Counted from the first letter of the stretch, positions 19,808 through 43,784 are shown. The stretch: DNA of 64,000 nucleotides from Gemmatimonadales bacterium (GCA_046596135.1 JBKJMX010000001.1:1912-65911), one strand, 5' to 3'. Notes: a model not told the origin generated them from the letters alone. Numbers and translations: made by a program.

Positions 19808-21759
19808 CTCCCGACGATACTTCGGACCTCGAGCGCCTGCAGGACGCGCTTGCAGGGATCTGGTCGATCGAGCGCGAGATCGGCCGCGGCGGGATGGGCG
19901 TGGTCTACCAAGCGCGCGATGTCGCCCTCGACCGACCCGTGGCGATCAAGCTCCTTCATCCTTCCCTTGCGCGCGATTCAACGCAGCGGGAACGCTTCCT
20001 TGTTGAGGCCCGGACCGGCGCACGCCTCTCGCATCCGCACATCGTGCCGGTCTATGCCGTCGAGGAACGAACCGATTTCGTGTACTTCGTGATGGCGTTG
20101 ATCGATGGCGAGTCGGCGGGAGAGAAGCTTCGCCGCGAGGGGCCGATGGAAGCGCCGGAGGTCGAGCGGATCCTGCGCGACATCGGCTGGGGGCTGGCGT
20201 ATGCGCATGCGATGAACCTCGTGCACCGCGATGTCACGCTGGACAACATCCTCATCGAACGAAGCACAGGCAGGGCGGTGCTCGCCGATTTCGGCATTGC
20301 GTCCGAGATCGACCAGCTGGATCGTGGCCCGCTGATCGGTACGCCTGCGTACCTGGCGCCGGAAATCATCCAAGGTGAACCGCCGACACCCCTGAGCGAC
20401 CTGTACGCCCTGGGCATCGCCGGGTGGAGCATGCTCGCAGGCCGTCATCCCTTCATTGCTGACGACACTCCATCACTGCTGCTGATGCATGTCACCGAGG
20501 TCGCACCGCTCGTGAGCAAGGCGGCCCCGCGCACGCCCTCGAGGCTAACGCGCGCGATACAGAATGCCCTCGAAAAAGATCCCTCCGTGCGCGCGGGGTC
20601 GACGGAGGAGTGGGTCGAATCACTGGGGGGCGGCACGAGCATGGCGGCACTTGCGGACCCGCTCCGTCAATGGCTCGGACGGTGGGAGCGTGCGAAGCCG
20701 TTCTACGCACTTGGCATGAGCGTTCTTGCGATGCTCACGGCGAAGGCGGCGGCCGACTTGCTGAACGCAGTCACGTATTTTGGTCCCTACTTCCGCGGCA
20801 ACTGGAGCGCCTTTTTCACGATGATGATCGATTCGGGCATCAAGGTGCTCGGCGGCGTACTCCTGATTCACGCAGGCCTGGAAGTCATGGCGCTCCGCCG
20901 CCTTGCCGCCCGGGGATACGGCATCAAGGACATCCGACTCGTGCTGGCAAGGAACCGCGAGGAATTGCGCAGGTCACCGCCGGCGCCAGCGTCGCTGCTG
21001 GCGAGGGTGGTCCACGACCTCGGATGGCTGGCGGGCGGGCTGTACGTGCTGCTGGCGGTGTCGATCTTGAAGTATCTGTGGCTGTTCATGCCCACGGGAT
21101 ATGACTACCTCCCCCTCTTCTACTTTATCCACAGCATCGGACAATGGGCGTACGTCGCGTTCTGGTCGGCGCTCGGGTTCTCGTTCCTCATGCCCGTATT
21201 CCGGTTCACCGATGACAGCTTGTTCACTCGCGCGCGCGCAAGGCTCTGGAATTCGGCTTTTGGAGTCGCCGCGCTTCGCCTTGCGGCATTTCGCGTCGTC
21301 CGCGCCGACGACACATCCCACACGCTGCACCGTCCCACTGAACTGGTACTCGACCTTGCGATCGAAGATCTATGGCGTGAGTTGCCAGTCGAGACCCGCC
21401 GTGGGCTCGGAGACATACCAGCGCTGGTGGAGACACTTCGGCGCCGCATTTCGGCCGTGAGAGACACCGAGCGCCTCGTCGATGAGTCATCGATCGAGCG
21501 CACCGACGCGATACGGGACATGCGCCTGCGCCTAGCCGAGCGCCATCATGCCGGGGTCAGAGCCCTCGAGCGGATCCGGCTCCTCCTCGCTCAGCTGGGG
21601 TCTGCCGCTGCGCCCCTCGGCGAGTTCACCGCACAACTCGAAGATGCGCGCGCGGTCGAACGCTCGCTGCTGGAAGAACTCGGCGCGCACCCCGGTTTGT
21701 GGAAGCAGTTGAAATCCGGACTGCGAAATGCGTCGCCAACGCCAACGCCAGCTGGATGA
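19804..21759 (+). CDS. membrane Ser/Thr protein kinase, paralogue 2
   Basis: ATGA overlap with paralogue 1. GRGGMGVVY, VAIKLL, HRDVTLDNILIE, ADFGIA and LAPEI motifs. Same post-kinase architecture and shared motifs (RWER.KP.YAL, HR.TELVL, GLGD.PAL, ALERIRL). Confidence 0.9.
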   Translation: MTPDDTSDLERLQDALAGIWSIEREIGRGGMGVVYQARDVALDRPVAIKLLHPSLARDSTQRERFLVEARTGARLSHPHIVPVYAVEERTDFVYFVMALIDGESAGEKLRREGPMEAPEVERILRDIGWGLAYAHAMNLVHRDVTLDNILIERSTGRAVLADFGIASEIDQLDRGPLIGTPAYLAPEIIQGEPPTPLSDLYALGIAGWSMLAGRHPFIADDTPSLLLMHVTEVAPLVSKAAPRTPSRLTRAIQNALEKDPSVRAGSTEEWVESLGGGTSMAALADPLRQWLGRWERAKPFYALGMSVLAMLTAKAAADLLNAVTYFGPYFRGNWSAFFTMMIDSGIKVLGGVLLIHAGLEVMALRRLAARGYGIKDIRLVLARNREELRRSPPAPASLLARVVHDLGWLAGGLYVLLAVSILKYLWLFMPTGYDYLPLFYFIHSIGQWAYVAFWSALGFSFLMPVFRFTDDSLFTRARARLWNSAFGVAALRLAAFRVVRADDTSHTLHRPTELVLDLAIEDLWRELPVETRRGLGDIPALVETLRRRISAVRDTERLVDESSIERTDAIRDMRLRLAERHHAGVRALERIRLLLAQLGSAAAPLGEFTAQLEDARAVERSLLEELGAHPGLWKQLKSGLRNASPTPTPAG

Positions 21760-26468: not shown

Positions 26469-26500
26469 AACGCCGACCCTTGGTCGGCGTTCGTGTTTCT
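26469..26500 (+). terminator. putative his attenuator (intrinsic terminator)
   Basis: AACGCCGACC-TT-GGTCGGCGTT, a perfect 9-10 bp GC-rich stem, followed by CGTGTTTCTGT. Lies between the leader ORF and hisG. The upstream GTTGATG (26429-35) can pair with CATCAAC (26465-71), which overlaps the 5' arm. Confidence 0.55.
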
Positions 26501-26522
26501 GTCACTCGAAACACCGCCGAGC

Positions 26523-27419
26523 ATGGGTCGAGGAGAGTCGGTGAACCTCGAGACGAATGACGGCGGGCTCCGGCTGGGGCTGCCGAAGGGACGCATGCAG
26601 GCAGAGATATTCACGTTGCTCGATGCCGCGGGGCTGACCGTGCGCGCGGGGCAACGCGAGTACCGGCCGATGATCGCGGGCAGCGGGTTCAACGTGAAGA
26701 TCCTGAAACCGCAGAGCATCGTCGAGATGCTGGCGCTCGGGTCACGCGACGTCGGCTTCGCCGGCGCCGACTGGGTCGCCGAACTCGACGCAGAGCTGGT
26801 CGAGGTTCTCGACACCGGCTTCAACCCGGTTGACCTGGTCGCGGCGGCACCAGCTGCGCTGCTGGCCCGGGGTCCACTCGACAGCCAGCCTGGCCTCGTG
26901 GTCGCGACCGAGTACCCGCGTCTCACCACGGCCTGGCTTCAGGACGGCGGCATCGACGCCAGCATCGTGCATTCCTGGGGCGCGACAGAGGTCTTTCCCC
27001 CCGACGACGCCGACCTGATCGTCGACAATACATCGACCGGTGCCACGCTGATCGCCAATAGCCTCGTGATCGTGGATACCCTGATGCGCTCGTCGACTCG
27101 GCTCTATGCGCATCCCCGTGCGCTGGATGACGCGGCGCGGCGTGCCGACATCGAGCGACTGGTGATGATGCTCACGTCGGTGCTCGAGGCACGCGGTCGG
27201 GTCATGGTCGAGGTCAACGTGACGCCTGATCGCCTCGAGGCGGTGTGCGCAGCGCTGCCATGCATGCGCGAGCCCACCATTGCCGCACTCCACGCCTCTG
27301 CTGGCTTTGCGATCAAGGCCGCTGTGCCCCGCGCCGATCTGGCGCGACTGGTGCCGTGCATCAAGGCTGCGGGCGGATCGGACATCGTGATCACGGCGCT
27401 CACCCACATCGTGCCATGA
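26523..27419 (+). CDS. hisG: ATP phosphoribosyltransferase, long form with C-terminal regulatory domain
   Basis: LRLGLPKGRMQ, LKPQSIVEMLALGSRDVGFAGADWV and DNTSTGATL motifs, plus a HisG_C-like tail. An alternative GTG start at 26541 follows AGGAGAG. Confidence 0.9.
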   Translation: MGRGESVNLETNDGGLRLGLPKGRMQAEIFTLLDAAGLTVRAGQREYRPMIAGSGFNVKILKPQSIVEMLALGSRDVGFAGADWVAELDAELVEVLDTGFNPVDLVAAAPAALLARGPLDSQPGLVVATEYPRLTTAWLQDGGIDASIVHSWGATEVFPPDDADLIVDNTSTGATLIANSLVIVDTLMRSSTRLYAHPRALDDAARRADIERLVMMLTSVLEARGRVMVEVNVTPDRLEAVCAALPCMREPTIAALHASAGFAIKAAVPRADLARLVPCIKAAGGSDIVITALTHIVP

Positions 27420-29125
27420 CCACGTCACCGCTTCCCGCACCCGCAACGCGAATCGTCGCCACTGGCGCATACGCGCCGCGTCGCCCCGCTGGACCGATCG
27501 ACCTCGATCTTGCGGGCACAGAGGGCTCGCGCGCCAATGCGTCGCCCGCCGACACCGCGGTTCGTGCCGCGCTGTCCCGCTACCCCGACGCCACGCCACT
27601 GCGCAACGCACTCGCCGCCCGCCACGACGTCGACCCCTCGCAGGTGCTGATCACTGCAGGGGCGGATGAGGCGCTGGAACGGCTCTTCCGGGCTTACCTC
27701 GAGCCGACGCGCGAGGTGATCCTGACGGACCCGACATTCGAGATGCTCCCCCGATATGCGCAGGCAACTGGGGCGACCCTCGTACGGGTTCCGTGGACGA
27801 CATCACGATTTCCCCTCGACACGCTGCTCGCTGCGATCACGCCGAATACCGCGATGATAGCAGTGGTCACGCCCAACAATCCCACCGGTGCGGTGGCGAC
27901 AACGGCAGACATTATCACGATCCACGACGCCGCGCCGGCCGCCGTGGTGGTCGTTGACCTCGCCTACGTCGAGTACGCCGACAGCGATCCCACCGCCGAA
28001 CTTCTCGCGTTTCCCCGCGTGGTGATCGTGCGCACGTTCTCCAAGGCATGGGGGCTGGCGGGCGCGCGTGTCGGGTACGCGTTGGGATCAGCGGACGTGA
28101 TCGCGGCAGCAGTGACCGCCGGCAACCCGTACCCCGTGTCGTCACCGTCGCTCGACCTCGCGCGCGAAGCTCTTGAAACCGGCGAGACAGCAATGCGCGA
28201 CCGAACCCAGTGGGTACGCGAGCGGCGAGGCCAATTGCTGGCATCGCTCGAGACCGCCGAAGTTCTCGCGATCCCGACGCAGGCAAATTTCGCGTGTGTG
28301 TCGCCCGCCAACCCCAGGTGGCTCTGGGATGGGCTGGCGGGACTCGGGATCGGGACCCGGTTGATCGAAGCCGCCTCGCCATCCCATGTTCGCATCACCG
28401 TGCCCGATGATGACGCTGGTTGCGACCGGGTCGCGGACGCGCTGCGATGCATCACCGATCCCGAATGCATCGTGTTCGACATGGACGGCGTGCTTGCCGA
28501 CGTGTCGCGCTCCTATCGGACCGCCATCATCGGCGCCGCCGCCGAGTTCGGGGTCACCGTGGCGCCGGCGGACATCCGGGCCATGAAGGAAGCCGGGAAT
28601 GCCAACGATGACTGGGCCCTGACCGCCGCATTGGTCGCCGCGCAGCGCGATGACGTCCCGTTTGCCGAGATCAAGGCGGCATTCGAGCGATTGTATCAGG
28701 GCACCGCGTCCACGCCCGGGCTTCACCTCACGGAAACGCTGCTTGTCGATCCCGGATTGCTGCGCCGGCTCGCCGCGAGGCTCCCGCTCGCGATTGCCAC
28801 CGGACGGCCGCGTGCCGATGCGGAGCGCTTCCTCACCCGATTCAATGTGCGCGACTGCTTCACGGCATGCGTGACGTGCGACGACGGACCCGGCAAACCT
28901 GATCCGTTTGCCGCCGCAGAGGCACTCCGGTTGGTCGGAGCGCAGCGCGCATGGATGATCGGCGACACTCCCGACGATGTCCGTTGTGCGCGCCGCGCCG
29001 GCCTCCTCCCGATCGGCATCCTCGCCCCCGGCGACCCGGGATCGCGGATGACTGCAGCACTTCTCGGTGCGGGCGCGGCGCGCGTCCTTTCTTCACTCGA
29101 CGACCTGGAGATCCTGCTACCATGA
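27416..29125 (+). CDS. hisC: histidinol-phosphate aminotransferase fused to a HAD-superfamily phosphatase domain
   Basis: ATGA overlap with hisG. The N-terminal approx. 350 aa is a class-II aminotransferase ([20 protein letters not shown]). The C-terminal approx. 220 aa carries HAD motifs I-IV (FDMDGVL, IATG, GKPDP, GDTPDD). Confidence 0.85.
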
Positions 29126-29712
29126 ATTCGAGAACCGCCGAATACTCCCGCGCCACCCGCGAGACCGACGTCACCGTGAGCATCTCCCTCGACGGCGCTG
29201 GCGAATCGAGCATCGCGACCGGAATCGGGTTCCTCGATCACCTGCTCACGGCGCTTGCCATGCATAGCGGGATGACGATCGATGCCAAGGTCACCGGCGA
29301 CCTGCACGTCGACGATCACCACACCGTCGAGGATGTCGCATTGGCCCTGGGCACCGCCTTCGACCGTGCACTCGGCGACCGGCGGGGCATCACCCGCTTC
29401 GGAAGTGCGTACGCACCGCTCGATGAGGCACTGGCGCGCGCGGTGATCGACCTCTCCGGGAGACCGTTCGCCCGGGTCGAACTCGGCCTGCGCCGCGAAC
29501 AACTGGGCGGGCTGTCCTGCGAGAACATCCCACACGCGCTCGCATCCTTTGCCACGGCGGCGCGACTCACGTTGCATGTCGATGTGATCGCCGGGGAGAA
29601 CGATCATCACCGCGCCGAGGCCGCGTTCAAGGCCGTGGCGCTGGCGCTTCGTGATGCGGTGCGACAGACGGGCAATGCTGCCGTTCCCAGCACGAAGGGG
29701 TCACTCACGTGA
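29122..29712 (+). CDS. hisB: imidazoleglycerol-phosphate dehydratase (monofunctional)
   Basis: ATGA overlap. [34 protein letters not shown] and [12 protein letters not shown] motifs. 196 aa with no phosphatase domain. Confidence 0.92.
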
Positions 29713-30305
29713 CCAGGTCGATTGCGATCGTGTCAACCGGGACCGCCAACGTGGCGTCGATGGAGGCCGGCCTCCGCCGAGCCGGCGCCGAACCATTCCG
29801 CACCTCCGACCCCGATCAGGTGGCCGAGGCCTTGGGCGTCGTCATCCCCGGCGTCGGAACCTTTGCCGCCGCGATGACGCACCTTCGCGAAACTGGGATG
29901 GATGCCGCGCTGCGCGCCCGCTTCCGCTCGGGCCGTCCTGTCCTGGCCGTCTGCCTCGGTCTGCAGCTTCTGGCCCGGACGAGCGAGGAATCACCCGGCG
30001 AGACCGGGCTCGGCATTGTCGACGTCGACGTCGTCGGGCTGCCTGCAGGTGCCACGCGGCCGCAGCTCGGATGGAACGAGGTCGTCCCGTCGATGCCCGG
30101 ATTGGTCGAGGGCGGTCACGCCTACTTCGCCAACTCATACTGCCTGCGCTCGGAAACCGATGATTGGCAAGCGTCACATGCACATCACGGCGACCGGTTC
30201 GTCGCGGCCATGCAGCGGGACCGTCAGCTCGCCTGTCAATTCCACCCCGAGTTGTCCGGGGCGTGGGGTGTGGCGTTGCTCACCCGGTGGGTCGCCGCAT
30301 GCTGA
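29709..30305 (+). CDS. hisH: imidazole glycerol phosphate synthase, glutamine amidotransferase subunit
   Basis: GTGA overlap. VIPGVG, catalytic Cys in AVCLGLQLL, and CQFHPE. Confidence 0.9.
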
Positions 30306-31051
30306 CTCGACGGATCATTCCCTGTCTCGACACCAGCGATGGCCGGGTGCTCAAGGGCCGACAGTTCCGCGAGATGCGCGACGTCGGCGATCCCGCCGAG
30401 CTTGCCGCCCGCTACGACGCCACCGGCGCCGACGAACTGGTGCTGCTCGATGTGACCGCGACAACAGGAGACCGGCCGCATGCTGCCGAAACCGTGCGGG
30501 CGGTGCGCCGCGAACTCACCATCCCGCTCACCGTGGGTGGCGGCGTGCGCAGTGTGGGTGATGCCGAGCGCCTGCTTGACAGCGGCGCCGACAAGGTGGC
30601 GCTCAACAGCGCGGCGCTGGTCCGCCCCGGTTTGGTCACGGCGCTCGCAGACCGGTTCGGCACCCAGTGCATCGTGGTCGCAATCGATGCGCTGCGGGTG
30701 GGGGAGACGTGGATGGTGCGTGCGAGGGCCGGATCGGAGGACGTGGCGCGCGATGCGATCTCCTGGGCCGCGGAGGCGGAACAACTCGGCGCTGGTGAGA
30801 TCCTGCTCACCAGCATCGACCGCGACGGCACACGCAGCGGATTCGATGTCGCGCTGCTTGCGGCGGTGACGAGCCGCGTGTTCATCCCGGTGATCGCGTC
30901 GGGCGGTGCCCATGATGCATCGGATTTTGTTGCCGCGTTCGGTGCGGGCGCCGACGCCGTGCTCGCGGCGTCGATCTTTCACGATCAGGACACCACGGTC
31001 GTTGAACTCAAGCGAACGCTCGCCGCATGTGGCGTGGAGGTCCGGCCATGA
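30299..31051 (+). CDS. hisF: imidazole glycerol phosphate synthase, cyclase subunit
   Basis: Start [11 protein letters not shown] overlaps the hisH stop by 7 nt. Motifs DELVLLD, PLTVGGGVRS, ADKVALNSAA and GAGEILLTSIDRDGT. Confidence 0.92.
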   Translation: MLTRRIIPCLDTSDGRVLKGRQFREMRDVGDPAELAARYDATGADELVLLDVTATTGDRPHAAETVRAVRRELTIPLTVGGGVRSVGDAERLLDSGADKVALNSAALVRPGLVTALADRFGTQCIVVAIDALRVGETWMVRARAGSEDVARDAISWAAEAEQLGAGEILLTSIDRDGTRSGFDVALLAAVTSRVFIPVIASGGAHDASDFVAAFGAGADAVLAASIFHDQDTTVVELKRTLAACGVEVRP

Positions 31052-33588
31052 TCATCCCGTCCATCGATATCCGTGGCGGCGAGACCGTGCAACTGGTGGG
31101 CGGGCGCGATCTGGCAATCGCGGCGGGCTCGCCCGACCCATGGCTGGAGCGGTTTGCCTTGGCAGGCGAGATCGCCATTGTGGACCTTGATGGTGCGTTT
31201 TCCACCGGCGACCAGCAGGAGGTGATCGCAGGTCTTTGTGAGCGGGCGTCGTGCCGGGTTGGCGGCGGCATTCGCGACTACGACCGTGCGCGCCGCTGGC
31301 TCGACGCCGGCGCTGCGCGGATCGTACTGGGGACAGCCGCCGAGCCCGCCCTGTTGTCCAAGCTGCCGCGGGACCGCACGATCGCGGCACTCGACGCCAT
31401 CGATGGCGAGATCGTGGTCGACGGATGGAGGCGCCGCACTGGCAGAGGTGTCGTCGAGCGTCTCCGCGAATTGCGCCCACATGTCGGCGGGTTCCTCGTC
31501 ACGTTCGTCGAGCGCGAGGGCCGGCTGGGTGGCATCGATGCCGATGCCATCCGCCCGCTGGTTGAGGCCGCGGGCGACGCCCGCCTGACGATTGCGGGTG
31601 GGGTCACGACGGCTGGCGACGTGGCGTTGCTCGATCAGATGGGGGCCGACGCCCAGGTCGGCATGGCGTTGTACACCGGCGCGCTCACCCTTGGTGACGC
31701 CATCGGCGCTCCGCTCCGCTCCGATCGCGCCGACGGCCTCTTCCCCACCGTGGTGACCGACGAGCGCGGTGTCGCGCTGGGACTGGCCTATTCAAGCCAC
31801 GCGAGCTTGCGGCGCGCCGTGGACGAACGCCGCGGCGTCTATCACTCACGACGCCGAGGACTCTGGGTCAAGGGCGAGTCCTCCGGTGCCACGCAGGAGT
31901 TGCTCCGTGTTGACCTTGACTGCGACCGCGACACCCTGCGATTCGTGGTGCGCCAGCACGGCACGGGGTTCTGCCATCGGGACACGGCCACCTGCTGGGG
32001 CAACGGTAGGGGCGTAGCTGCGCTCGAATCCACGCTTCGACAGCGGCGCGGGGCCCCCGAGCCGGGATCGTACACGCAGCGCCTCTGGGATGATCCCGAC
32101 CTGCTCGCAAGCAAGCTGGTGGAGGAAGCCCGCGAACTCGCCGAAGCCGTGGACCCCGAGCATGTGGTGCGAGAGGCCGCCGACGTGACCTACTTCACGG
32201 GCGTGGCACTCCGGCGCGCCGGCGCGTCGTTCGCTGATGTCGATCGCGAACTCGACCGTCGCGCGCTCCGGGTTGCCCGCCGGCCAGGTAACGCGAAGCC
32301 TGAAACAGCCACGGAACCATCAGGTGGTTTGTCGTTCACCGGACTTCGACGGGTCGGACCCGGGAACCTCCCCACGAGGATCGCCAGTGCCGTCGATCCC
32401 GCCACATCGGCACGCGCGACCGCGATCGTGGACGCCGTGCGGCTCGGCGGCGATGCTGCGCTTGCTGGGTTCGCACGGGAACTCGACGGCTGGACCGGCG
32501 GCAATTCACTGGTCATCGGTGCGGATGCACTGGCGGCCGCCCTCACCGACCTTGACCCCGCGGTGCGCGAGCTGCTTGACAGGGTCGCGGGTCGGATCCG
32601 CGAATTCGCCGTGGCGCAGCGCGGCACGATCGCCGAGCTGGACACTGCCGTCACTGGCGGGCGCGCCGGGCACCAGATCATCCCCGTGTCACGCGCTGGC
32701 TGTTACGCGCCGGCGGGACGCTTTCCGCTTCCGTCATCGTTGCTCATGGGGGTGGTCACCGCGCGGGCGGCGGGCGTCTCGGAGGTTTGGGTGGCGACAC
32801 CGGCACCATCGCCGCTCATGCTCGCCACTGCCGCGATTGCTGGCGCGACCGGCGTGATCGCTGCGGGGGGAGCGCACGCGATCGCAGCACTCGCTTACGG
32901 CACCGAGACGATCGCGGCGTGCGACGTGATCGTGGGGCCCGGCAGCAAGTGGGTCACGGCCGCGAAACGTTGCGTGGCTGGCGACGTGGCGATCGACTTC
33001 CTCGCCGGCCCCTCGGAGCTCCTGGTGGTGGCAGATGCATCCGCAGCTGTGGATGCAGTGGCTGCAGACTTGCTTGCGCAGGCGGAGCACGATGCCGACG
33101 CGTTGCCAATTCTCATCGGCACCACGAGTGACGTGCTCGATGCGGTGGACGCAGCGCTGGTCCGGCAACTCGCGGAACTTCCGGCGCTATCGCCGGCGCA
33201 CCAATCATTGCATGGCGGCTTCGCGGTGCTGTGTGCCACCGAACAGGAAATCATCGCGACCATCGATGCGATCGCGCCCGAGCACCTTCAGTTGTCGGTC
33301 GAGATGCCCGGTGCCCTCGCCGCGCGCTGCACCAATGCGGGCGCGATGTTCCTCGGCAACCAGTCGGCGGAGGTGTTCGGGGACTATGGGGCGGGCCCGA
33401 ACCACATCCTTCCCACCGGTCGCGCGGCACGACACACCGGAGGGCTTTCGGTGATGCACTTCCTCCGGATGCGTACCTGGTTGGCGTTGGATCAGCCGGA
33501 ACGTCTGGCGCTTGACACGGCGATGCTGGCGAGACTCGAGGGCCTGGAGGCTCACGCTCGGGCGGCCGAGATGCGCCGGCCAGGATAA
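31048..33588 (+). CDS. four-domain fusion HisA - HisI - HisE - HisD (ProFAR isomerase / PR-AMP cyclohydrolase / PR-ATP pyrophosphatase / histidinol dehydrogenase)
   Basis: ATGA overlap with hisF and a single uninterrupted 846-aa frame. HisA: IIPSIDIRGG...VGGGIR...GGV. HisI: GLWVKGESSG...DCDRDTL...CH. HisE: YTQRLWDD...KLVEEARE. HisD: GCYAPAGRFPLPSS, GPGSKWVTAAK, AGPSE, AQAEHD, GDYGAGPNHILPT. Confidence 0.88.
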   Translation: MIIPSIDIRGGETVQLVGGRDLAIAAGSPDPWLERFALAGEIAIVDLDGAFSTGDQQEVIAGLCERASCRVGGGIRDYDRARRWLDAGAARIVLGTAAEPALLSKLPRDRTIAALDAIDGEIVVDGWRRRTGRGVVERLRELRPHVGGFLVTFVEREGRLGGIDADAIRPLVEAAGDARLTIAGGVTTAGDVALLDQMGADAQVGMALYTGALTLGDAIGAPLRSDRADGLFPTVVTDERGVALGLAYSSHASLRRAVDERRGVYHSRRRGLWVKGESSGATQELLRVDLDCDRDTLRFVVRQHGTGFCHRDTATCWGNGRGVAALESTLRQRRGAPEPGSYTQRLWDDPDLLASKLVEEARELAEAVDPEHVVREAADVTYFTGVALRRAGASFADVDRELDRRALRVARRPGNAKPETATEPSGGLSFTGLRRVGPGNLPTRIASAVDPATSARATAIVDAVRLGGDAALAGFARELDGWTGGNSLVIGADALAAALTDLDPAVRELLDRVAGRIREFAVAQRGTIAELDTAVTGGRAGHQIIPVSRAGCYAPAGRFPLPSSLLMGVVTARAAGVSEVWVATPAPSPLMLATAAIAGATGVIAAGGAHAIAALAYGTETIAACDVIVGPGSKWVTAAKRCVAGDVAIDFLAGPSELLVVADASAAVDAVAADLLAQAEHDADALPILIGTTSDVLDAVDAALVRQLAELPALSPAHQSLHGGFAVLCATEQEIIATIDAIAPEHLQLSVEMPGALAARCTNAGAMFLGNQSAEVFGDYGAGPNHILPTGRAARHTGGLSVMHFLRMRTWLALDQPERLALDTAMLARLEGLEAHARAAEMRRPG

Positions 33589-33591
33589 CGG

Positions 33592-34875
33592 CTAGCGACC
33601 CTGCCGGAATGCGCGGGCAGCGGGCGGGACCGGGGTTCCGATCGGAGTCGCGCCCGACGGGGGGAGCCCCGAATCATCCGCGTCGTCGCCCACGATGACG
33701 GCGGCTGCCATCGTCCCGGTGACATTGGCGGTGGTGCGGAACATGTCCGGGACAGTGTCGACGGCCAGGAGGATCCCGAGACCTTCGATTGGCAACCCGA
33801 CGCTCAAGAGCACCGGCGCCATGATCAAAATTGAGCCGCCCGGGATGCCGGGCACCGAGAACGAGACGGCGACCGACGTCACGGCAATCGTGACGAGCTC
33901 GGCAGGCCCCAACGCAACCCCGTATAGCCGACCGACGAAGAGCACGCCAACCGGGAGCGCAACGCCGGCTCCCAGTCGGAAGAGTGACGTGCTGAACGGC
34001 ATGAAGAAGGCGGCGATGCGCGGCGACAGCCCCAGCAGCGCCGCGCCGTCGATCAGCGCGGGAAGCGCAGCGAGCGACGAGCGGGCCGAAATGGCGATGC
34101 CCTGTGCCGGGGCGACCGCGCGCGCGAACATTCGCACACCGGACCCGCGAGCCATCACCAGCAGGTAGAGCGCGCCGATCACGGCCGTCATGAGCACCGC
34201 CGTCACCACGACGTACGCCACCACGGCGCCCAGCGCGGTCACCCCGAGCCGCACGGCGAGCGGCAGGGCGAGCGCGAACACGCCGATCGGCGCAACCGAC
34301 AGGATCCACCGCACCAGCACGAGCGTCATCGCACAGATTGCGTTGGCGGCGCCAAGCAACTGTTCGCGATACTCGGCAGGCACCCGGGCGGCGGCAGCCC
34401 CGAAGAGCAGGGTCGCCACGATTACCGGAAGCATCAACCCGCTTGCGCCCGTGGCAAGAATGTTGGTCGGAACCAGATTGACGATCCATTCGCGGACGGC
34501 GGGAACGTCGTGCGAACCGGTGGCAGCGGTTGCCGCCGGCACCACGGCTTCGCCGCCCTGGATGGCAAACAGGTCGAAGAGGGCGGGCGCCACCATCACG
34601 GTCAAACCGGCCGTCACCAGGAGCAGGATGGTAAAAACCACGATCGCCCGCAGGCCCAGTGTTCCGATCCCGCTGCCGCCACCCATCACCGCCACGAACA
34701 GCAGCGACACGACCAGGGGCAGTACCGTCATTTGCAGCCCGCGGGTCCACAGCGTGCCGATGGGTTCGATCCACATCGCCAAGTCGCGCCATGCCGGGGG
34801 TGCGAGGAGCACCAACAGGATGCCACCAACGAGGCCGGCGACGAGGCCCGTGAGGACACGACTGGTCAGCGACAT
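33592..34875 (-). CDS. dicarboxylate/amino acid:cation symporter (DAACS family)
   Basis: Start MSLTSRVLTGLVAGL. SSLAALPA, VPGIPGGS and AVDTVPDMFRTTANVTG signature motifs. Confidence 0.9.
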   Translation of the reverse strand: MSLTSRVLTGLVAGLVGGILLVLLAPPAWRDLAMWIEPIGTLWTRGLQMTVLPLVVSLLFVAVMGGGSGIGTLGLRAIVVFTILLLVTAGLTVMVAPALFDLFAIQGGEAVVPAATAATGSHDVPAVREWIVNLVPTNILATGASGLMLPVIVATLLFGAAAARVPAEYREQLLGAANAICAMTLVLVRWILSVAPIGVFALALPLAVRLGVTALGAVVAYVVVTAVLMTAVIGALYLLVMARGSGVRMFARAVAPAQGIAISARSSLAALPALIDGAALLGLSPRIAAFFMPFSTSLFRLGAGVALPVGVLFVGRLYGVALGPAELVTIAVTSVAVSFSVPGIPGGSILIMAPVLLSVGLPIEGLGILLAVDTVPDMFRTTANVTGTMAAAVIVGDDADDSGLPPSGATPIGTPVPPAARAFRQGR

Positions 34876-35096
34876 GTCGGGAATGTAGCGGACGGCGGAT
34901 GGGGGGGCGAAAGCACTGGCCCAGGGCCGGTCCGACGCGGCGATGTCGGGGACAGCGCCGCCCAAGCGTCTACATTGTGACGAAGGTTCAGCGCACTCAT
35001 TCGTGCCGTGAGATGTCACCACCGGCCCCGCACCCCGCCGGCGTTGGGCGGAGCACGTTCTTTCCCGTGAATGCTGTGCCCATGCCTGGAGAGTTA

Positions 35097-38000
35097 ATGG
35101 TTTCACGCGCGCCCGGCTGGACGACTGACGACAGCACGCTGCAGGACCCGATCCGCGCGGAGCTGTTCGGCCCCGAGCGGCTGGAGCAACACGCGGCGTC
35201 GCTGGCGCACGCGCAGCAGGTCACCCGGATCGCGATCAAGGGGGGCCCGCTCCTCGAGCGGGTGCGCGACAACCGGCGGGTCCTCCGCGCCATGCAGGCG
35301 CAGATCGCCGAGGCGGTCACCGACGAGCGATGGATCACGCCGTCCGCGGAATGGCTGCTCGACAACTTCTACATCGTCGACGAACAGCTCCGGGAAATCC
35401 GGGACGACCTTCCGCAGGGTTTCTACCGCGAGCTGCCCAAGCTGATCGATGGCCCGCTTGCCACCCTGCCCCGCGTCTACGGGATCACCTGGGCATTCAT
35501 CGCACATACCGACAGCCGGTTCGATCCCGACCTGCTCATCCGGTTCATTGATTCATACCAGCGCGTCGATCCGCTGACGATCGGCGAGCTCTGGGCGATC
35601 GCGATCACGCTTCGCGTCGTCCTCGTGGAGAACCTCCGGCGGTGTGCCGAGGCAATCGCGCGGAGCATGCACGAACGCGAGCGGGCCGATCGCCTCGCCG
35701 ATGAGCTGCTCGGGGCCGAGGGTGACCAGGCGTCGACCTCTGCCGCACTGCTCCAGCGCTACGAAGACATCCCGATCTCGCGGGCGTTCGCGGTCGAACT
35801 GGTGATGCGGCTGCGGGACCGCGATCCCGCCGCCACCCCGGCGCTGAAGTGGCTCAACGAGCGGCTGACCCGGGAGGGATCGTCGGCGGACGATCTCGTC
35901 AACGAGGACCACCACCGTCAGGCAGCGATGACCGTGACGGTGCGCAACATCATCACGAGCATGCGCCTGGCGTCGGCGTTCGACTGGGCCGTGTTCGTCG
36001 AGCGGGTGAGTCTCGTTGACGAGCTCCTCCGTACCCACCCGACCTATCCGGCCATGGATTTTGCGAGCCGTGATGCCTACCGGCATGCGATCGAGGACCT
36101 CTCCCGCCGATCCAGCCGATCCGAACTGGAGGTGGCGCGCGAGGCATTGCGGCGGGCCGACCCCGCCGGGGAAGCGCCGGGCGGGATCGCACGCGATGCC
36201 CGGCAGGACGACCCGGGCTATTACCTCTTCGGCCGCGGGCGACGCGAGTTCGAGCACGAGGTTGGATACCACCCGTCGGCCATGCGTCGCATCTTCCGCG
36301 CGTACCTCGACGTGGCGGTGCCGGGCTACCTCGGGTCGATCGTTGTGCTCACGGCGGTGGTCCTTGCCATCCCCATCGTGCTGGCCCGCTCTGCGGGGGT
36401 GGCGCCATTCGATCTGGTGGTGCTGGCGCTCCTCGCGCTGATCCCCGCGTCTGATCTCGCTATTGCGCTGCTCAACCGGAGCGTGACGGCGATCGTGCCG
36501 CCCTCGCTGCTACCCCGTCTCGAGCTCAAGAACGGCATCCCGCTGGAACTGCGCACCCTCGTCGTCATCCCGACCCTCCTCACGTCTCCTGAGGAGATCG
36601 AGGAGACGGTCGAGCGCCTCGAGGTGCACTACCTCGCCAACCCTGACGGCGATGTGCACTTCGCAATCCTCTCCGACTGGACCGACGCGGCCACCGCACG
36701 GATGCCTGGCGACGAGGCCATGCTCAGTGCCGCGCAGCGCGGTATTGCCCGACTCAACGCGCGCCATGGCGAGGTCCGATTTCACCTGTTGCACCGGCGT
36801 CGGACGTGGAACGGGAGTGAAGGCACGTGGATGGGGTGGGAGCGGAAGCGGGGAAAGCTGCACGAACTCAACCGGCTGCTCCGCGGCGCCACCGACACCA
36901 CGTTCGTATCGGTTGACGGCAGCCCGGTCGCTGCGCCGCAAGGCGTGCAGTACATCATCACGCTGGATAGCGACACCCGGATCCCGATCGATGCCGTGGC
37001 GGGCCTTGTGGGCACGATGGCTCATCCGCTCAATCGTCCGCTCTTCGATGATGCCAGCCGTCGCGTGGTCGATGGATACGCCATCCTGCAGCCGCGTGTG
37101 ACGCCCCCGCTGCCTGGCCGCGCCGGCTCGCTCTACCAGCAACTGGTGTCGGGCTCGCCCGGGATCGACCCATACGCGTCGGCGATCTCCGATGTCTACC
37201 AGGACATCTTCGGCGAAGGATCGTTCACCGGAAAGGGGATCTACGACCTCGACGCGTTCGAGGCGGCGCTGGCAGGGCGGGTGCCGGAGAATCGCCTGCT
37301 CAGCCACGATCTCTACGAGGGGATCTTCGCCCGCGCCGGGCTCGTCACCGACATCGAGGTGTTCGAGTACGCACCCGCGAGCTACACCGTTGCCGCCGCG
37401 CGCCAGCATCGGTGGGTCCGTGGCGACTGGCAGCTCCTGCCGTGGTTGTTCGCACGCGGCCTGCCGCTTGTGGCCAGATGGAAGATCCTCGACAACATGC
37501 GGCGCTCACTCTCCGCCCCTTCCGCCTTCCTGACGATCGTGCTGGCGTGGAGCCTCGCCGACGTCGCACCAATGCGATGGATGCTGTTCATCCTGGCGAC
37601 CATTGTCATTCCCGCACTTATCCCGGTGGCTGCTGGCGTGGTTCCCCGCGGCCGCGGGATCTCGAAGCGAAGCCATGTCCGCGCCGTGCGGCGCGACCTC
37701 GAGGCCGCCGGTTGGCACACCGCCGTCACCGTGACCATGCTGGCGCACCAGTCATGGGTCATGGGGGATGCGATACTGCGGACGCTGGGTCGCGTGATCA
37801 TCACGCGTCGCCACCTGCTGCAGTGGACCACGGCGGCGCAATCGGCGAATAGCCATCGCAACCGCATCCGGGACTTCATGGGTCGGATGGCCGGCGCGCT
37901 CGTCCTCACCGCCGCCGCAACCGTCGCGGTGGCATGGAACCAGGCTCCCCGCTGGCAGACGGCCGTTCCACTCCTCCTGCTGTGGGCGTTCTCGCCGGTG

Positions 38001-41000
38001 ATCGCACATGCACTCAGCATCTCGCAGCTCAGCGCCCGTACCACCGCCGTCTCCGATGCTGACGCCCGCACGCTTCGCCTGATCGCGCGGCGGACCTGGC
38101 GATTTTTCAGCACGTTCGTCACGGCCGGCGACAGATGGCTCGCGCCCGACAACTTCCAGGAGACCCCGCAGCCGGTCGTCGCGCACCGCACGTCACCGAC
38201 GAACATCGGCCTGTCGCTGCTGGCGAACGTCTCGGCCCGCGACTTTGGCTGGATCGGATCGGTGACCATGCTCGACCGTCTCGAGGCCACCCTCTCCTCG
38301 GTCAGGCGTCTGGAGTTCTGCCGCGGCCACCTCTACAACTGGTACGAGACCACCGAAGGGCGGGCGCTGGAGCCACGGTACATCTCATCGGTCGACAGCG
38401 GCAACTTCGTCGGCTGCCTGATCGCCACCGGCAACGCCTGTCGCGAACTGCTCGATCGACCCGCCATGCCGACGTCCTCGATGACCGGTATCCTCGACAC
38501 GGTGGACCTGCTGCGCCGGGCGGTGCGCAACGTGGGCGATCACGCCGACGTCGAGCGAAACGTGCGGCGCCGGATCGACGAGCAGATGGCCCGGATCATG
38601 GAACGCGCGGCCGTCGCCGCCGTGACGCCGCATGATCAGGTAGCGCGGCTCGAAGCGCTCTCCGTCGATGCCCGCGCCCTGCTCGACATGGCGGAGGCAG
38701 CCGGCCTGCAGTCGGTGGGGGAGCACGACGTGGCGGCGTGGGCCGGCGCCCTCATCGACGATGTGGCGAGCCAGCTCATGGATTTCGACCGCCTCGCGCC
38801 GTGGGTGCGGCTTCGACTGGGCGGCGCCGCCAACGCCTTTGCCCCGCTGCTCGCCGGTCCCACGCTCGCGGAGCTGCCGGCGCGCTGCACGCTGGTCGCG
38901 CGCTCGCTGGCGGCCCTCCGGGCCTCGGGCGATGCCGCGCCCCTGGACGTCGACCTCGAAAGTCTCGGGATCGCCGTCGAGCAATGTGAGCGCTCGGCGC
39001 GATCCCTGGTGATTCGGATCGCGGCGCTCGCCTCGGACACGACGCGGATGGTCGATGCGACGGAGTTCGGCTTTCTCTTCGATCCGCTGCGCAAGCTCTT
39101 CTCGATCGGATACCGTGTCGCCGAGGATTCGCTCGACCCCGGTCATTACGACCTCCTCGCCTCCGAGGCACGCCTGCTCAGCTACATCGCCATCGCGAAG
39201 GGCGACGTACCCGTCGAGCACTGGTTCCGGCTGGGCCGATCGCTGACGCCCGTGGGCCGTGACTCGGTGCTCATGTCGTGGTCGGGATCGATGTTCGAGT
39301 ACCTCATGCCGGCGCTGCTGATGCGAACCCCCGTGGGCAGCCTGATCGAGCAGACCTGCCGCTTGGTGGTGAATCGCCAGATCGCGTACGGCGAGGAGCG
39401 CGACATCCCATGGGGCGTGTCGGAATCCGGGTACAGCGCGCGCGATCTCGAGATGACGTACAAATATTCCGCCTTCGGCGTCCCCGGACTCGGCCTGAAG
39501 CGGGGACTCGGCGACGCGATCGTGATCACCCCGCACGCCACCGGTTTGGCATCGATGATCGACCCTGGCGAGGCGGCACGGAACTTTGCCGAGCTGCGAC
39601 GGGTGGGTGCATCCGGTCCCTATGGCTTTTACGAAGCCGTGGATTTTACCGCCTCCCGTCGCCCGCCAGGCGAGCGGGGTGCCGTCGTGCACAGCTACAT
39701 GGCGCACCACCAGGGCATGATGCTGGTGGCGATCACCAACGCGCTCCATGATGGCGCGATGCGCTCACGCTTTCATGCGGAGCCGATGGTGCAGGCGTCC
39801 GAGATGCTCCTGCAGGAACGGACACCACGCGATGTCGCGGTGGCGCGCCCACGCGTCGAGGAGTTCACGGCGGTCGGCGATGTCCGCGAGTCGGTGCCAG
39901 CAGTGTCGAGAACGTTCTCGTCGCCACACGGCACCACGCCCCGAACCCATTTGCTCTCCAACGGCCGGTACGCCGTGATGCTCACCTCGGCCGGGGGGGG
40001 ATACAGCCGGTGCAATGGACTCGCCGTAACCCGCTGGCGAGAGGACGTCACGTGCGACGACACGGGCTCGTTCGTGTTCCTGCGCGACACGGAGAGCGGC
40101 GAATCCTGGTCTGCCGCGTTCCAGCCCTCAGCTCGCGAGGCATCGGCGTGGGAACTCGCCTTCCAGGAGGATCGAGCGGAGCTCAGCCGACGTGATGGTA
40201 GCATGACCACCCGCCTCGAGGTCATCGTATCGGCTGAGGACGATGCCGAACTGCGGCTCGTCTCACTCACCAACCATGGACGCACCACCCGCGACATCGA
40301 CGTGACGTCGTATGCAGAGGTCGTCCTGGCCCCCCATGCCGCCGACGTGGCCCACCCCGCGTTCTCGAACCTGTTCGTCAGCACCGAGGTGGTGAGCGAG
40401 GCGAATGCGCTCCTGGCGACACGCCGGCAACGATCACCCGACGATCCCGAGGTGTGGCTGGCGCACGTGGTGGCGACATCCGACGGAAGCGACACGATGC
40501 AGTGGGAGACTGATCGGTACCGCTTCGTGGGCCGGGGCAACACTCTCCGCACGGCCGACGGGGCGGTGAGCGGGCGCCCACTGTCCAACACGACGGGGCC
40601 CGTGCTCGATCCGATTGTGAGCCTGCGCCGACACGTGACCATCCGTCCCGGGCGCACCGTCCGCCTCTGCTTCTCGACCATGGTGGCGGAATCGCGGGAC
40701 GCGGTCCTCGACCTGGCCGACAAGTACCAGGACCTCACGATCTTCGAACGGGCCGGCACACTCGCGTGGACACGCGCCCAGGTCCAGATGCACCACGTCG
40801 GCATCGGTCCCAACGAGGCACACCTCTTCCAGGAGCTCGCCGCCCCGCTGCTCTATGCGGATCGAGCGATGCGGGCACCTGCCGCGATCATCGCGCGACA
40901 GCACGGCGGCGCGTCGATGCTCTGGCCGCACGGCATTTCAGGCGACCTCCCGCTGGTGCTGGTGACGATCGAAGACGCGGAGGATGTCGGGCTGATCCGT

Positions 41001-43784
41001 CAATTGCTGCGCGCCCACGAATACTGGAAGATGAAGCGCCTCGCGGTCGACCTCGTCATCCTGAATGAACGGGCACCGTCATACGTGCAGGACCTGCAGC
41101 TCACCCTCCAGACGATGTTGCGGGCAAGTCCGGCGGTGGCGCCCGGTGGCGGGGCGGAGGTTCCCAGCGGGACCTACCTGCTGCGGGCCGAGCAACTCAC
41201 GGAGGTGCAGCGCGACGTCCTGTTCGCATCCGCCAGAGTCATCCTCTCCGCGCGACGTGGCACACTGGCCGACCAGGTCGGACGGGTCCGGTCGACGACG
41301 GTTGCCGCCCCCATCTCGACCGTTTCCCCGCGGGCTCCGTTGCGCGCGCCCGACCCGGTACCTTCCGGACTGGATGGCCTCGCGTTCGCGAACGGACATG
41401 GCGGATTCACTGCTGATGGACGCGAGTATCTCATCACGACCTCGGTGGCTCGCCCGACCCCGCTGCCCTGGATCAACGTGCTGGCCAACGAATCGTTCGG
41501 GGCGCTGGTATCCGAGGCCGGCGCCGGCTCGACCTGGGCACGGAACAGCCAGAGCAATCGCCTCACGTCGTGGTCGAACGATCCCGTCACTGACCCGCCG
41601 CCGGAAGTGATCTATCTGCGCGACGCCGACAGCGGCAATGTGTGGACGCCCACTGGCGCGCCGATGGCGGGATGGAGCGGGTCGTGCGAGGTGGGGCATG
41701 GCGCCGGATACACCCGCCACCGCCGCCGCGTCGACGGCCTCGACCACGAACTGGTGCAGTTCGTGGCGGTGGACGACCCAGTCAAGGTTTCGCGTCTCAC
41801 CGTGCACAACCCCGGTGGGCGCTCGCGGGGACTGTCGGTCACTGCCTACGTGGAATGGGTTCTTGGCACGACACGCGACGCGACGTCGCAGCACCTTGTC
41901 ACCGAGCTCGACGCTGCAACGGGCGCGCTGTTCGCCCGGAATCCGTGGCACCCCGACTACGCCGCGCATGTCGCCTTCGCCGACCTCGCCGGCGCCCAGG
42001 AGTCCGTCACCGGCGACCGCACCGAATTCCTGGGCCGCAATGGCTCGGTGACCCAGCCGGCCGCCCTCCGGCGCGATGCTGCACTGTCGAACAAGGTGGG
42101 CGCCGGTCGGGATCCGTGCGGTGCGCTGCGGTGTAACCTGGTCATCCCGGCCGGCGAGTCGCGGTCCGTGACCTTCCTGCTCGGCCAGGCCCCGGACGCG
42201 GCCGCTGCGTCAGCGCTGGTTGCCCGGGTGCGCGCCAAAAATGTCGACGCGATGCTGCACGCGGTCATTGCGCAGTGGGACGCGGTACTCGGTGCGCTGC
42301 AGGTGCAGACGCCCGAGCCGTCATTCGACGTGATGATCAACCGATGGCTCCAGTATCAGGTGCTCGCGTGTCGCCTGTGGGCCCGCGCGGCGTTCTACCA
42401 ATCGAGCGGTGCATACGGATTTCGGGACCAGTTGCAGGACGTCATGGCTCTGCTGGCGAGTCGGCCTGATCTGGCCCGTGACCAGGTGCTCCGGGCGGCG
42501 TCGAGGCAGTTTGTGGAGGGCGACGTACAGCACTGGTGGCATCCGCCCTCGGGACGCGGGGTGCGCACACGCTTCTCGGATGACCTGCTGTGGCTGCCGT
42601 TTGTCACGATGCAATACCTCCGCGTCACGGCCGACGCGCCGGTGCTCAATGCAATCGTGCCGTTCATCGAGGGCCCGGCGCTCGCTCCTGGGCACATGGA
42701 GGCGTATTTCGAGCCACGCCTCTCCGGTGAGAGCGCCAGCATCTATGAACATTGCGCACGCACTATTGACCGCAGTCTCGCCGTCGGTGCCCATGGCCTT
42801 CCGCTGATCGGTGCGGGCGACTGGAACGACGGCATGAGCCGGGTCGGCGTGGAAGGCCGCGGTGAAAGCGTCTGGATGGGATGGTTCCTTCACACCATCC
42901 TGGCAGATTGGGTGGCGGTTGCCGCGGAACGGGGTGAGGCCGAGCGCGCCCGGGCGTGGAGCGATCACCGCGATTCGCTCGCGTCGGCACTCGAGACAGC
43001 GGGTTGGGACGGGGCCTGGTACCGCCGTGCCTACTTCGACGACGGCACGCCGCTCGGTTCCGCCACCAACGACGAATGCCAGATCGACGCCATCGCGCAA
43101 TCGTGGAGTGTGATCTCGGGGGCCGGCCTTCCGGATCATCAGGCGCAGGCCATGGCGTCGCTCGATGAACGACTCGTGCGACGTGATGACAGCCTCATCC
43201 TGTTGCTGGCGCCCCCCTTCGACGAGACGCAACTCGAACCGGGGTACATCAAGGGATACCTGCCGGGGATCCGGGAGAATGGCGCGCAGTACACCCACGC
43301 CGCCGCCTGGGCAGTGATCGCCCGCGCAATGCTCGGCGACGGCGACATGGCGATGGAGTACTTCAACTTGATCAATCCCGTGCGGTTGACCGGAACGCCG
43401 GCGGATGCGGCGCGTTACATGGGCGAACCGTATGCGCTGGCGGGCGACGTGTACTCGACCACGCCCCACATCGGCCGGGTCGGCTGGAGCTGGTACACGG
43501 GGTCGGCATCCTGGCTCTATCGCGCCGGCACGGAATTCATCCTCGGGTTCACCCTTCGCGGCGACCGGCTGATCGTTGATCCGTGCATTCCGCGCGACTG
43601 GCCGGAGTTCACGATGACCTACCGGCATGCAACCAGCACGTACCAGATCCGCGTCGTGAATCCTGGCGGCGTCAATCGCGGGGTCCGGTCGATGACAGTC
43701 GAAGGCGAGATTGGTGATCACGTTGCAGGTCTGCAACTGATCGATGACGGAACCACCCGTCATGTCGAGATCGAGCTCGGTTGA
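35097..43784 (+). CDS. cyclic beta-1,2-glucan synthase (NdvB/ChvB/Cgs-like; GT84 + GH94-type domains)
   Basis: 2895 aa. GGAGAG lies 4 nt upstream of the ATG at 35097. N-terminal [21 protein letters not shown] helices flank a GT domain (ITLDSDT...SHDLYEG...[10 protein letters not shown]). The C-terminal part is like glycosyl phosphorylase (GH94). Confidence 0.88.

Follow-up and report, generated by a model that had tools for sequence, protein, structure and literature searches.

A bacterial protein with HisA, HisI, HisE and HisD domains on one chain, encoded in a Gemmatimonadales histidine operon

Can a single bacterial polypeptide carry HisA, HisI, HisE and HisD, and how might enzymes that are not consecutive in the histidine pathway have come to share one chain? 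The question is raised by a 64,000-nucleotide stretch of DNA from a Gemmatimonadales bacterium (GCA_046596135.1 JBKJMX010000001.1:1912-65911; the whole stretch is referred to below as the window), in which an original prediction, made from the sequence alone, recognised the signatures of four histidine enzymes in one frame. Histidine biosynthesis is a textbook model for the way in which gene fusion, gene elongation and operon formation shape pathways. We find that the 846-residue protein with four histidine-pathway enzymes is genuine in this bacterium. Very probably it is a histidine enzyme of four domains and five activities that arose from an older HisA-HisIE fusion, to which HisD was added by loss of a stop codon.

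One frame and four enzymes

The open frame on the + strand extends over 31027..33588 and its likely start is the ATG at 31048, giving 846 residues plus the stop codon (31048-33588); the product of gene callers is the same 846-residue protein (P0001). The single uninterrupted frame that had been predicted is thus present at exactly these coordinates, and its ATG overlaps the stop codon of hisF as ATGA. His_biosynth, PRA-CH, PRA-PH and Histidinol_dh all exceed their Pfam gathering scores (Table 1). Together with NCBIfam models and residue conservation they confirm the proposal that phosphoribosylformimino-5-aminoimidazole carboxamide ribotide (ProFAR) isomerase, phosphoribosyl-AMP (PR-AMP) cyclohydrolase, phosphoribosyl-ATP (PR-ATP) pyrophosphatase and histidinol dehydrogenase lie on one chain; the domains and their conserved residues likewise cover pathway steps 2, 3, 4, 9 and 10, as had been claimed. 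The boundaries first suggested, about residues 1-235 for HisA and about 430-846 for HisD, are near those found here (1-~220 and ~433-846).

Many relatives have separate genes with a 4-nucleotide overlap, so that a single-nucleotide insertion or deletion (indel) at the overlapping hisA-IE stop and hisD start would suffice to merge two separate genes artificially. The sequence occurs in 14 metagenome runs, of soil or freshwater, that stem from several studies; variants were compared on assembler contigs, not on raw reads, and rare variants would escape notice in such a comparison. Contigs from run X1 (7.7 kb) and run X4 (8.8 kb, from another study) extend across 30900-33700 and differ there from the window by 9 substitutions, with 0 gaps; those from runs X5 and X9 cover portions of the same region, gap-free within the gene. 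When the 9 substitutions are applied the frame stays open and three residues are altered, all in the linker region. Eight of the nine fall at 32286-32406 (residues 413-453, the linker between HisE and HisD and the head of HisD); the remainder of the 2.5-kb gene has one substitution between the window and the X1/X4 strain contigs. Near 31750 and 32300, where a check for a merging indel had been proposed, these contigs have no indel at either junction. Furthermore, five independent homologues of 81-89% identity (89, 88, 86 and 81% among them) are exactly 846 residues long with all four domains, and all members of the clade, down to 61% identity, are fused and have the joint conserved. An assembly artefact is scarcely credible in the face of gap-free contigs from independent runs in different studies and of conserved fused orthologues; it was rejected on these grounds, and an indel is excluded for practical purposes.

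As a separate observation, a contig of run X9 lacks one base at 33587, within the stop codon of the fused gene, which would change the C-terminal end of the protein in that strain.

The protein was aligned, with 117 homologues of the same architecture, to HisA, HisIE and HisD of E. coli MG1655. The window protein retains all catalytic and metal-binding residues checked, as do 116-117 of the 117 homologues. In the HisA domain these are D7, D116, W127 and R76 (E. coli D7, D129, W145 and R83), each kept in 116-117 of the 117. The HisI residues D291, C292, D293, D295, C309, H310 and C316 (E. coli D80, C81, D82, D84, C97, H98 and C104) are invariant and make up the metal-binding motif DCDxD...CH...C. 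So too are the HisE residues E359, E360, E363, E376 and D379 (E. coli E152, E153, E156, E172 and D175), which belong to the acidic EExxE...ExxD motifs of the MazG-like fold. In HisD, Q678, H681, E745, H746, D779, H786, E831 and H836 (E. coli Q259, H262, E326, H327, D360, H367, E414 and H419) are invariant or nearly so. The roles of residues in all four enzymes are those that we take from the structural literature: a catalytic Asp pair, D7/D129, and a substrate-clamping Trp145 in HisA (from work on the Salmonella and T. maritima enzymes), and in HisD the zinc ligands Q259, H262, D360 and H419 with the catalytic E326/H327 (E. coli structure 1K75). On this conservation, each of the fused domains is predicted to be enzymatically active.

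An AlphaFold2 model of the window protein, built on an alignment of 65 sequences, has a mean predicted local distance difference test score (pLDDT) of 90.8. Strands and helices alternate over residues 1-210 of the HisA part, as in a (beta-alpha)8 barrel, and in Foldseek comparisons this part superimposes on solved HisA/PriA structures with a template modelling score (TM) of 0.80-0.85 and a root mean square deviation of ~2 Å; the nearest are actinobacterial PriA/HisA. The HisD part matches solved HisD structures with TM 0.86-0.88. The only segment with a pLDDT below 50 is residues 413-426, at the joint between HisE and HisD; the joint between HisA and HisI is well ordered. The Protein Data Bank holds single domains and HisIE only, and no solved multi-domain His fusion.

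At the N terminus the best NCBIfam matches are HisA models. The domain passes the PF00977 threshold, but that model covers HisF too; since the HisF model gives only 18 bits on this domain, it is not HisF. By its profile scores the HisA of these fused proteins is a divergent HisA subfamily. For PRA-PH, TIGR03188 gives 58.9 bits against a cut-off of 42.7.

The C-terminal domain could conceivably be a paralogue within the HisD family, for example the sulfopropanediol dehydrogenase HpsN, rather than a histidinol dehydrogenase; HpsN structures score near HisD structures (255 vs 262 bits) and their Foldseek ranks are similar. However, the hisD model TIGR00069 gives 390.4 bits, well above its cut-off of 243.8, all zinc and substrate residues of HisD are kept, the equivalents of H367 and E414 included, and this is the sole hisD in a complete his operon. 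We therefore regard a paralogue as highly improbable.

Relatives and the joint between HisE and HisD

Domain hidden Markov models (HMMs) assign the order HisA-HisI-HisE-HisD (A-I-E-D) to at least 117 protein clusters (90% identity) among the best 120 database matches, which, apart from the protein of the window itself and a single outlier (44%), have 52-89% identity to the window protein. The named carriers are metagenome-assembled genomes of Gemmatimonadales, Ca. Palauibacter, Phycisphaerales and Myxococcota/Deltaproteobacteria. The original prediction knew of no bacterial HisA-I-E-D fusion. A literature search indeed returned no description of a bacterial hisA-hisIE-hisD fusion, nor of a HisA-like N terminus in HIS4, but the architecture is not a one-off, given these clusters and the amoebozoan fusions described below. 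In a further homologue, P0041 (1,296 residues), two HisD domains follow HisI-HisE and the first ~240 residues have no detectable His_biosynth match; this protein may represent a different architecture or an assembly chimera.

About 45 related loci, on contigs taken as one genome per species, have the order G-C(-HAD)-B-H-F-A-IE-D. Of the 35 informative loci, 7 encode A-IE-D in a single open reading frame (ORF), namely four from Palauibacter, two from Gemmatimonadales and one from Gemmatimonadota; the remaining 28 have an ORF for hisA-IE and a distinct hisD gene in a different frame. It had been suggested that orthologues with uniformly separate genes would betray an assembly error. The closest relatives (61-89% identity) are in fact fused, whereas this majority of species-level loci, sister Gemmatimonadales included, is split. 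Where the genes are split, the stop of hisA-IE and the start of hisD share bases, as ATGA or GTGA, or a short spacer precedes an ATG. The residues at the window joint, ...RRPGNAKPETATEPSGG followed by LSFTGLRRV..., correspond to the HisA-IE tail and the HisD head of the split relatives. Given the stop-start overlap that these relatives have at the same joint, the HisE-HisD fusion is therefore best understood as read-through after loss of the stop codon at a 4-nucleotide overlap.

The clade of the window protein (P0002-P0024, L001 and L002; 61-89% identity) is uniformly fused and has a short joint common to the clade, ..PGxAKP..(8-12 residues)..FxGLRRV, while the sister Gemmatimonadales loci L012, L015, L016 and L018 are split. 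The linkers of other fused clades are longer, at 30-60 residues, and unrelated.

Matches to residues 223-846 in Acidobacteria/Bryobacterales were considered as HisIE-HisD fusions and rejected: they were separate hisE-or-hisI, hisG and hisD genes stitched together by tblastn. The gene order at these Acidobacteriota/Bryobacterales loci (L049-L080) is a short hisE-or-hisI, hisG, hisD, hisC, HAD, hisB, hisH, hisF and hisA, apparently all separate.

Bacterial HisA-HisIE proteins of ~420-430 residues, annotated 'phosphoribosyl-ATP diphosphatase', belong to the same family as the N-terminal 410 residues of the window protein and are widespread, making up 34 of the best 150 representatives at 50% identity. 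Their genes occupy the same operon position as the window gene, after hisF and before hisD, but end at a stop that overlaps the hisD start; in the window that stop is absent and HisD is read through. HisA-HisIE is the older, tightly packed fusion, of the consecutive steps 2-4, and on our reading is the immediate precursor of the window gene.

The working of the protein would then be as follows. HisE would convert PR-ATP to PR-AMP (step 2), HisI would open the purine ring to give ProFAR (step 3), and HisA would isomerise ProFAR to its phosphoribulosyl form, PRFAR (step 4), which would pass to the HisH/HisF encoded directly upstream; the fusion of these three activities could aid the handover of labile ProFAR and PRFAR to HisHF. 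The C-terminal HisD would convert histidinol to histidine in two NAD-dependent oxidations (steps 9 and 10). It would have been joined later, in this Gemmatimonadales lineage, when the stop was lost at a 4-nucleotide ATGA/GTGA overlap of hisA-IE and hisD, leaving a short disordered linker. Because it catalyses steps 9-10, HisD shares no intermediate with HisA-I-E. The joining of non-consecutive steps, which had been singled out as unusual for arguments from channelling, is thus real for HisD, but it is explained by gene order, and HisA-I-E itself covers the consecutive steps 2-4: most likely HisD is attached since hisD is the next gene after hisA-IE, the two having been joined by loss of the stop codon. 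The HisE-HisD joint would accordingly reflect gene adjacency and tolerance rather than substrate channelling, and the addition of HisD was probably nearly neutral. HisD and HisIE are both homodimers in solved structures; a symmetric dimer of the fused protein is plausible for this reason and should be geometrically possible.

Several observations weigh against this explanation. The HisA domain falls below the NCBIfam equivalog cut-offs (140.8 vs 243 for NF010112 and 128.4 vs 228.95 for TIGR00007), and E. coli HisA scores 87 bits with the HisF of the window but only 60 bits with the HisA domain of the fused protein. Outside the 64 kb examined there may be a second hisA or hisD. The predicted template modelling score of the AlphaFold2 model is 0.53, so that the mutual placement of the domains is not predicted by it. 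Fused and split states interleave on neighbour-joining trees, which speaks for the explanation, but the parsimony count of at least ~15 gains or losses of the fused state is rough, since the trees carry no support values and sampling was biased to fused proteins. Finally, the fusion persists through a clade as deep as 61% identity, which could mean that it is selected and not neutral.

The low HisA scores, and the decay of the homologous position in fungal HIS4 (see below), would fit a catalytically dead HisA-like barrel kept for a structural purpose, with the real ProFAR isomerase encoded elsewhere in the genome. D7, D116, W127, R76 and the glycine-rich phosphate-binding motifs are, however, effectively invariant across the 117 members. 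Real decay has the appearance seen in the fungal counterparts, where the HisA residues are lost. In addition, no second hisA, hisI, hisE or hisD is present in the operon or elsewhere within the 64-kb window. A dead barrel is thus very unlikely.

The persistence of the fusion bears on a further alternative, in which it is adaptive: the HisD dimer might serve as a scaffold that secures 1:1 stoichiometry and pairs two HisA-IE units, or might help to form a histidine metabolon with HisHF. The fused state is kept throughout two sizeable clades, that of the window and Ca. Palauibacter, still longer fusions are known (A-I-E-D-C-HAD and H-F-A-I-E-D), and fungi retain I-E-D over hundreds of millions of years (PMC1963479). 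Nevertheless, steps 4 and 9 are not consecutive, so no channelling is possible between HisA and HisD; the linker between HisE and HisD is disordered and is the fastest-evolving part of the protein; and fused and split states alternate frequently among relatives. An adaptive role is possible but doubtful, and a nearly neutral addition of HisD to HisA-HisIE by stop loss is preferred.

Comparison with known fusions and the N terminus of HIS4

Among the histidine gene fusions described in the literature searched, none from bacteria is that of the window. According to Fani et al. (2007; PMC1963479) there is no HIS4-like protein in prokaryotes, and the N-terminal 160-220 residues of fungal HIS4 have no detectable homology and unknown function. 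A 2023 review (PMC10138114) names the genes that take part in fusions, hisD, N, B, H, F, I and E, and hisA is not among them. Witek et al. (2021; PMC8102479) mention in one sentence trifunctional PRA-PH/PRA-CH/ProFAR-isomerase proteins in some bacteria, the sole related statement that the literature search returned, and their similarity network places fungal HIS4 near Myxococcales. In Acanthamoeba castellanii, Rice et al. (2018; PMC6029752) describe a heptafunctional H-F-A-I-E-D-G protein of 1,682 residues. As part of larger eukaryotic fusions, the A-I-E-D module is therefore not new; bacterial databases contain it in abundance, but unremarked.

The two-domain HisIE of E. coli and Salmonella has the I-E order and the metal-binding motifs of the window protein, but only ~30% identity to it, and its gene lies at the operon end, away from hisD and hisA. 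Fungal HIS4 comes closer: it has HisI, HisE and HisD in the same order on one chain, with a variable linker between HisE and HisD (PMC1963479), shares all the catalytic residues of these three domains with the window protein, and aligns collinearly with it at full length, the alignments extending into the HisA region. It differs in that its N-terminal barrel is without the HisA catalytic residues, a separate gene supplying HisA, whereas the HisA domain of the window is intact, and in being eukaryotic and monocistronic, where the window gene is the last of a bacterial operon. The window protein is thus predicted to work like an extended HIS4, while not being a member of the fungal family.

In the amoebozoan proteins the A-I-E-D module recurs with its order unchanged, within H-F-A-I-E-D-G in Acanthamoeba castellanii, H-F-A-I-E-D in Paramoeba and A-I-E-D-C-HAD in Protostelium. 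In a search of 1.84 billion representatives, the window protein matches the Protostelium protein best, at 53% identity and 870 bits over residues 2-843; both this Protostelium protein and that of Paramoeba keep every catalytic residue checked, those of HisA included. The domain order of these fusions mirrors the window gene order H, F, A-IE, D. They carry additional domains, N-terminally H-F and C-terminally G or C-HAD, whereas in the window hisH, hisF, hisG and hisC-HAD are separate ORFs. On a neighbour-joining tree that carries no support values, the amoebozoan sequences fall among bacterial A-IE proteins.

It is possible that the bacterial proteins also explain the N terminus of HIS4. We lean towards the proposal that eukaryotic HIS4-type enzymes have their intact counterpart in bacterial HisA-HisIE(-HisD), which through horizontal transfer may also be their source or a sibling, and that the fungal and oomycete N terminus is a decayed HisA barrel, which would make HIS4 A*-I-E-D, the asterisk marking the decayed domain. 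Amoebozoa would then retain the active form, and fungi, and apparently a choanoflagellate too, the remnant of a pseudo-enzyme. One search was made with an inexact yeast HIS4 query (best match 52% identity), from which only the database proteins returned were used; the proteins analysed include P0275, P0288, P0129, P0131 and P0191 (HIS4/His7) and P0276 (oomycete).

Some of these proteins begin like strand beta-1 of HisA: MFIPSLDLSD in Absidia, MLVPILDLPAP in Allomyces and MIIPSISLTS in Actinomortierella, against MIIPSIDIRGG in the window. Such HisA-like N termini were seen in early-diverging fungi, of which Allomyces and Absidia retain the first Asp. With hmmsearch, the HisA-domain HMM gives at most 23-26 bits on fungal N termini, too weak alone, and for this reason the proposed decay rests on profile-profile and structural evidence. 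Profiles of the N-terminal region (~190-260 residues) of fungal HIS4/His7 and oomycete HisIE were compared by hhalign. The fungal regions match HisA of the A-I-E-D family at 89-90% probability (E about 2e-6), stand-alone HisA at 80% and HisF at 54%; the oomycete regions match the same three at 94% (E about 1e-7), 23% and 6%, respectively. These matches span only 42-72 columns, and the alignment in the decayed region is uncertain. In the AlphaFold2 model of S. pombe His7, the split form of HIS4, eight alternating strands and helices are seen with high confidence in residues 1-200; the best structural match other than HisIE is HisF, followed by other ribulose-phosphate-binding barrels and plant ProFAR isomerase. 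Consistent with a decayed barrel, the catalytic sites of HisI, HisE and HisD are all kept in fungi and those of HisA alone are lost, whereas in Protostelium and Paramoeba all are kept.

The operon, its neighbours and the meaning of the fusion

The fused gene is the last of a compact operon in the order hisG, hisC-HAD, hisB, hisH, hisF, hisA-IE-D (Table 1). Each start codon in the operon overlaps the end of the preceding gene; that of hisB (ATG at 29122), for example, overlaps the upstream stop. A scan of the whole window with Rfam at gathering thresholds returned no his leader, T-box or other regulatory RNA.

Table 1. Positions of the histidine operon genes and of the parts of the fused gene within the window
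Feature	Position	Strand	Details
hisG, long form with HisG_C regulatory domain	26493..27419	+	PF01634 and PF08029; true start uncertain
hisC fused to HAD hydrolase	27416..29125	+	Aminotran_1_2 at residues 58-343, HAD at 351-530; matches to TIGR01141 (hisC) and TIGR01548
hisB, imidazoleglycerol-phosphate dehydratase only	29122..29712	+	PF00475, 198.8 bits; without phosphatase domain
hisH, glutaminase subunit	29709..30305	+	GATase domain; 39% identity to E. coli HisH
hisF, imidazole glycerol phosphate synthase cyclase subunit	30299..31051	+	PF00977, 244 bits; 46% identity to E. coli HisF
Shine-Dalgarno GGAGG	31037..31041	+	6 nucleotides before ATG 31048; read directly from the sequence
hisA-hisI-hisE-hisD fused gene	31048..33588	+	single ORF, 846 residues and stop; four Pfam domains above gathering score
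HisA (ProFAR isomerase) domain	31048..31707	+	residues 1-~220; PF00977 at 1-213, 119.8 bits vs 23.6
HisI (PR-AMP cyclohydrolase) domain	31714..32007	+	residues ~223-320; PF01502 at 246-317, 78.3 bits vs 27
HisE (PR-ATP pyrophosphatase) domain	32008..32277	+	residues ~321-410; PF01503 at 323-405, 50.3 bits vs 21.3
Fusion joint, flexible linker	32284..32325	+	residues 413-426; AlphaFold2 pLDDT <50; linker overall ~411-432
HisD (histidinol dehydrogenase) domain	32344..33585	+	residues ~433-846; PF00815 at 453-843, 404.1 bits

Since the hisB of the window is without a phosphatase domain, the HAD domain of hisC-HAD is the likely histidinol-phosphate phosphatase, which would fuse the consecutive steps 7 and 8; the hisC-HAD protein scores 138.7 bits with TIGR01548, against a cut-off of 140.2. 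If the HAD domain is indeed a histidinol-phosphate phosphatase, six genes encode all ten steps of histidine biosynthesis. Many related loci likewise have hisC and HAD fused or side by side, and the pair is joined to A-I-E-D in proteins of ~1,500 residues (P0064, P0122 and the Protostelium protein P0121).

Elsewhere in the window, on the + strand, a giant ORF at 34899-43784 encodes ~2,900 residues with two GH94 supersandwich domains, a GH94 catalytic domain and a glucoamylase-like domain, and resembles cyclic beta-1,2-glucan synthases of the NdvB/Cgs type. It is followed at 43872-46409 by a gene for an 845-residue CBM9 and DUF5916 protein. Two Ser/Thr protein kinase genes (666 and 651 residues) lie in tandem at 17807-21759 (+), and their ends overlap.

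The fusion is neither a single case nor one that calls for an unusual mechanism; it is common in uncultured bacteria and little described. The only annotation that A-I-E-D genes carry is 'histidinol dehydrogenase' or 'phosphoribosyl-ATP diphosphatase', and because of this partial annotation tools for pathway reconstruction could wrongly call hisA, hisI and hisE missing. The locus shows a HIS4-like protein in a bacterium, with an intact HisA in addition, and together with its unfused relatives it captures a mechanism of fusion, the loss of a stop codon at a 4-nucleotide gene overlap. For the N-terminal domain of fungal HIS4, so far unexplained, it suggests an origin that can be tested. Furthermore, the repeated gain and loss of the fusion supports operon adjacency, and not metabolic channelling, as the factor that decides which enzymes of the pathway become fused.

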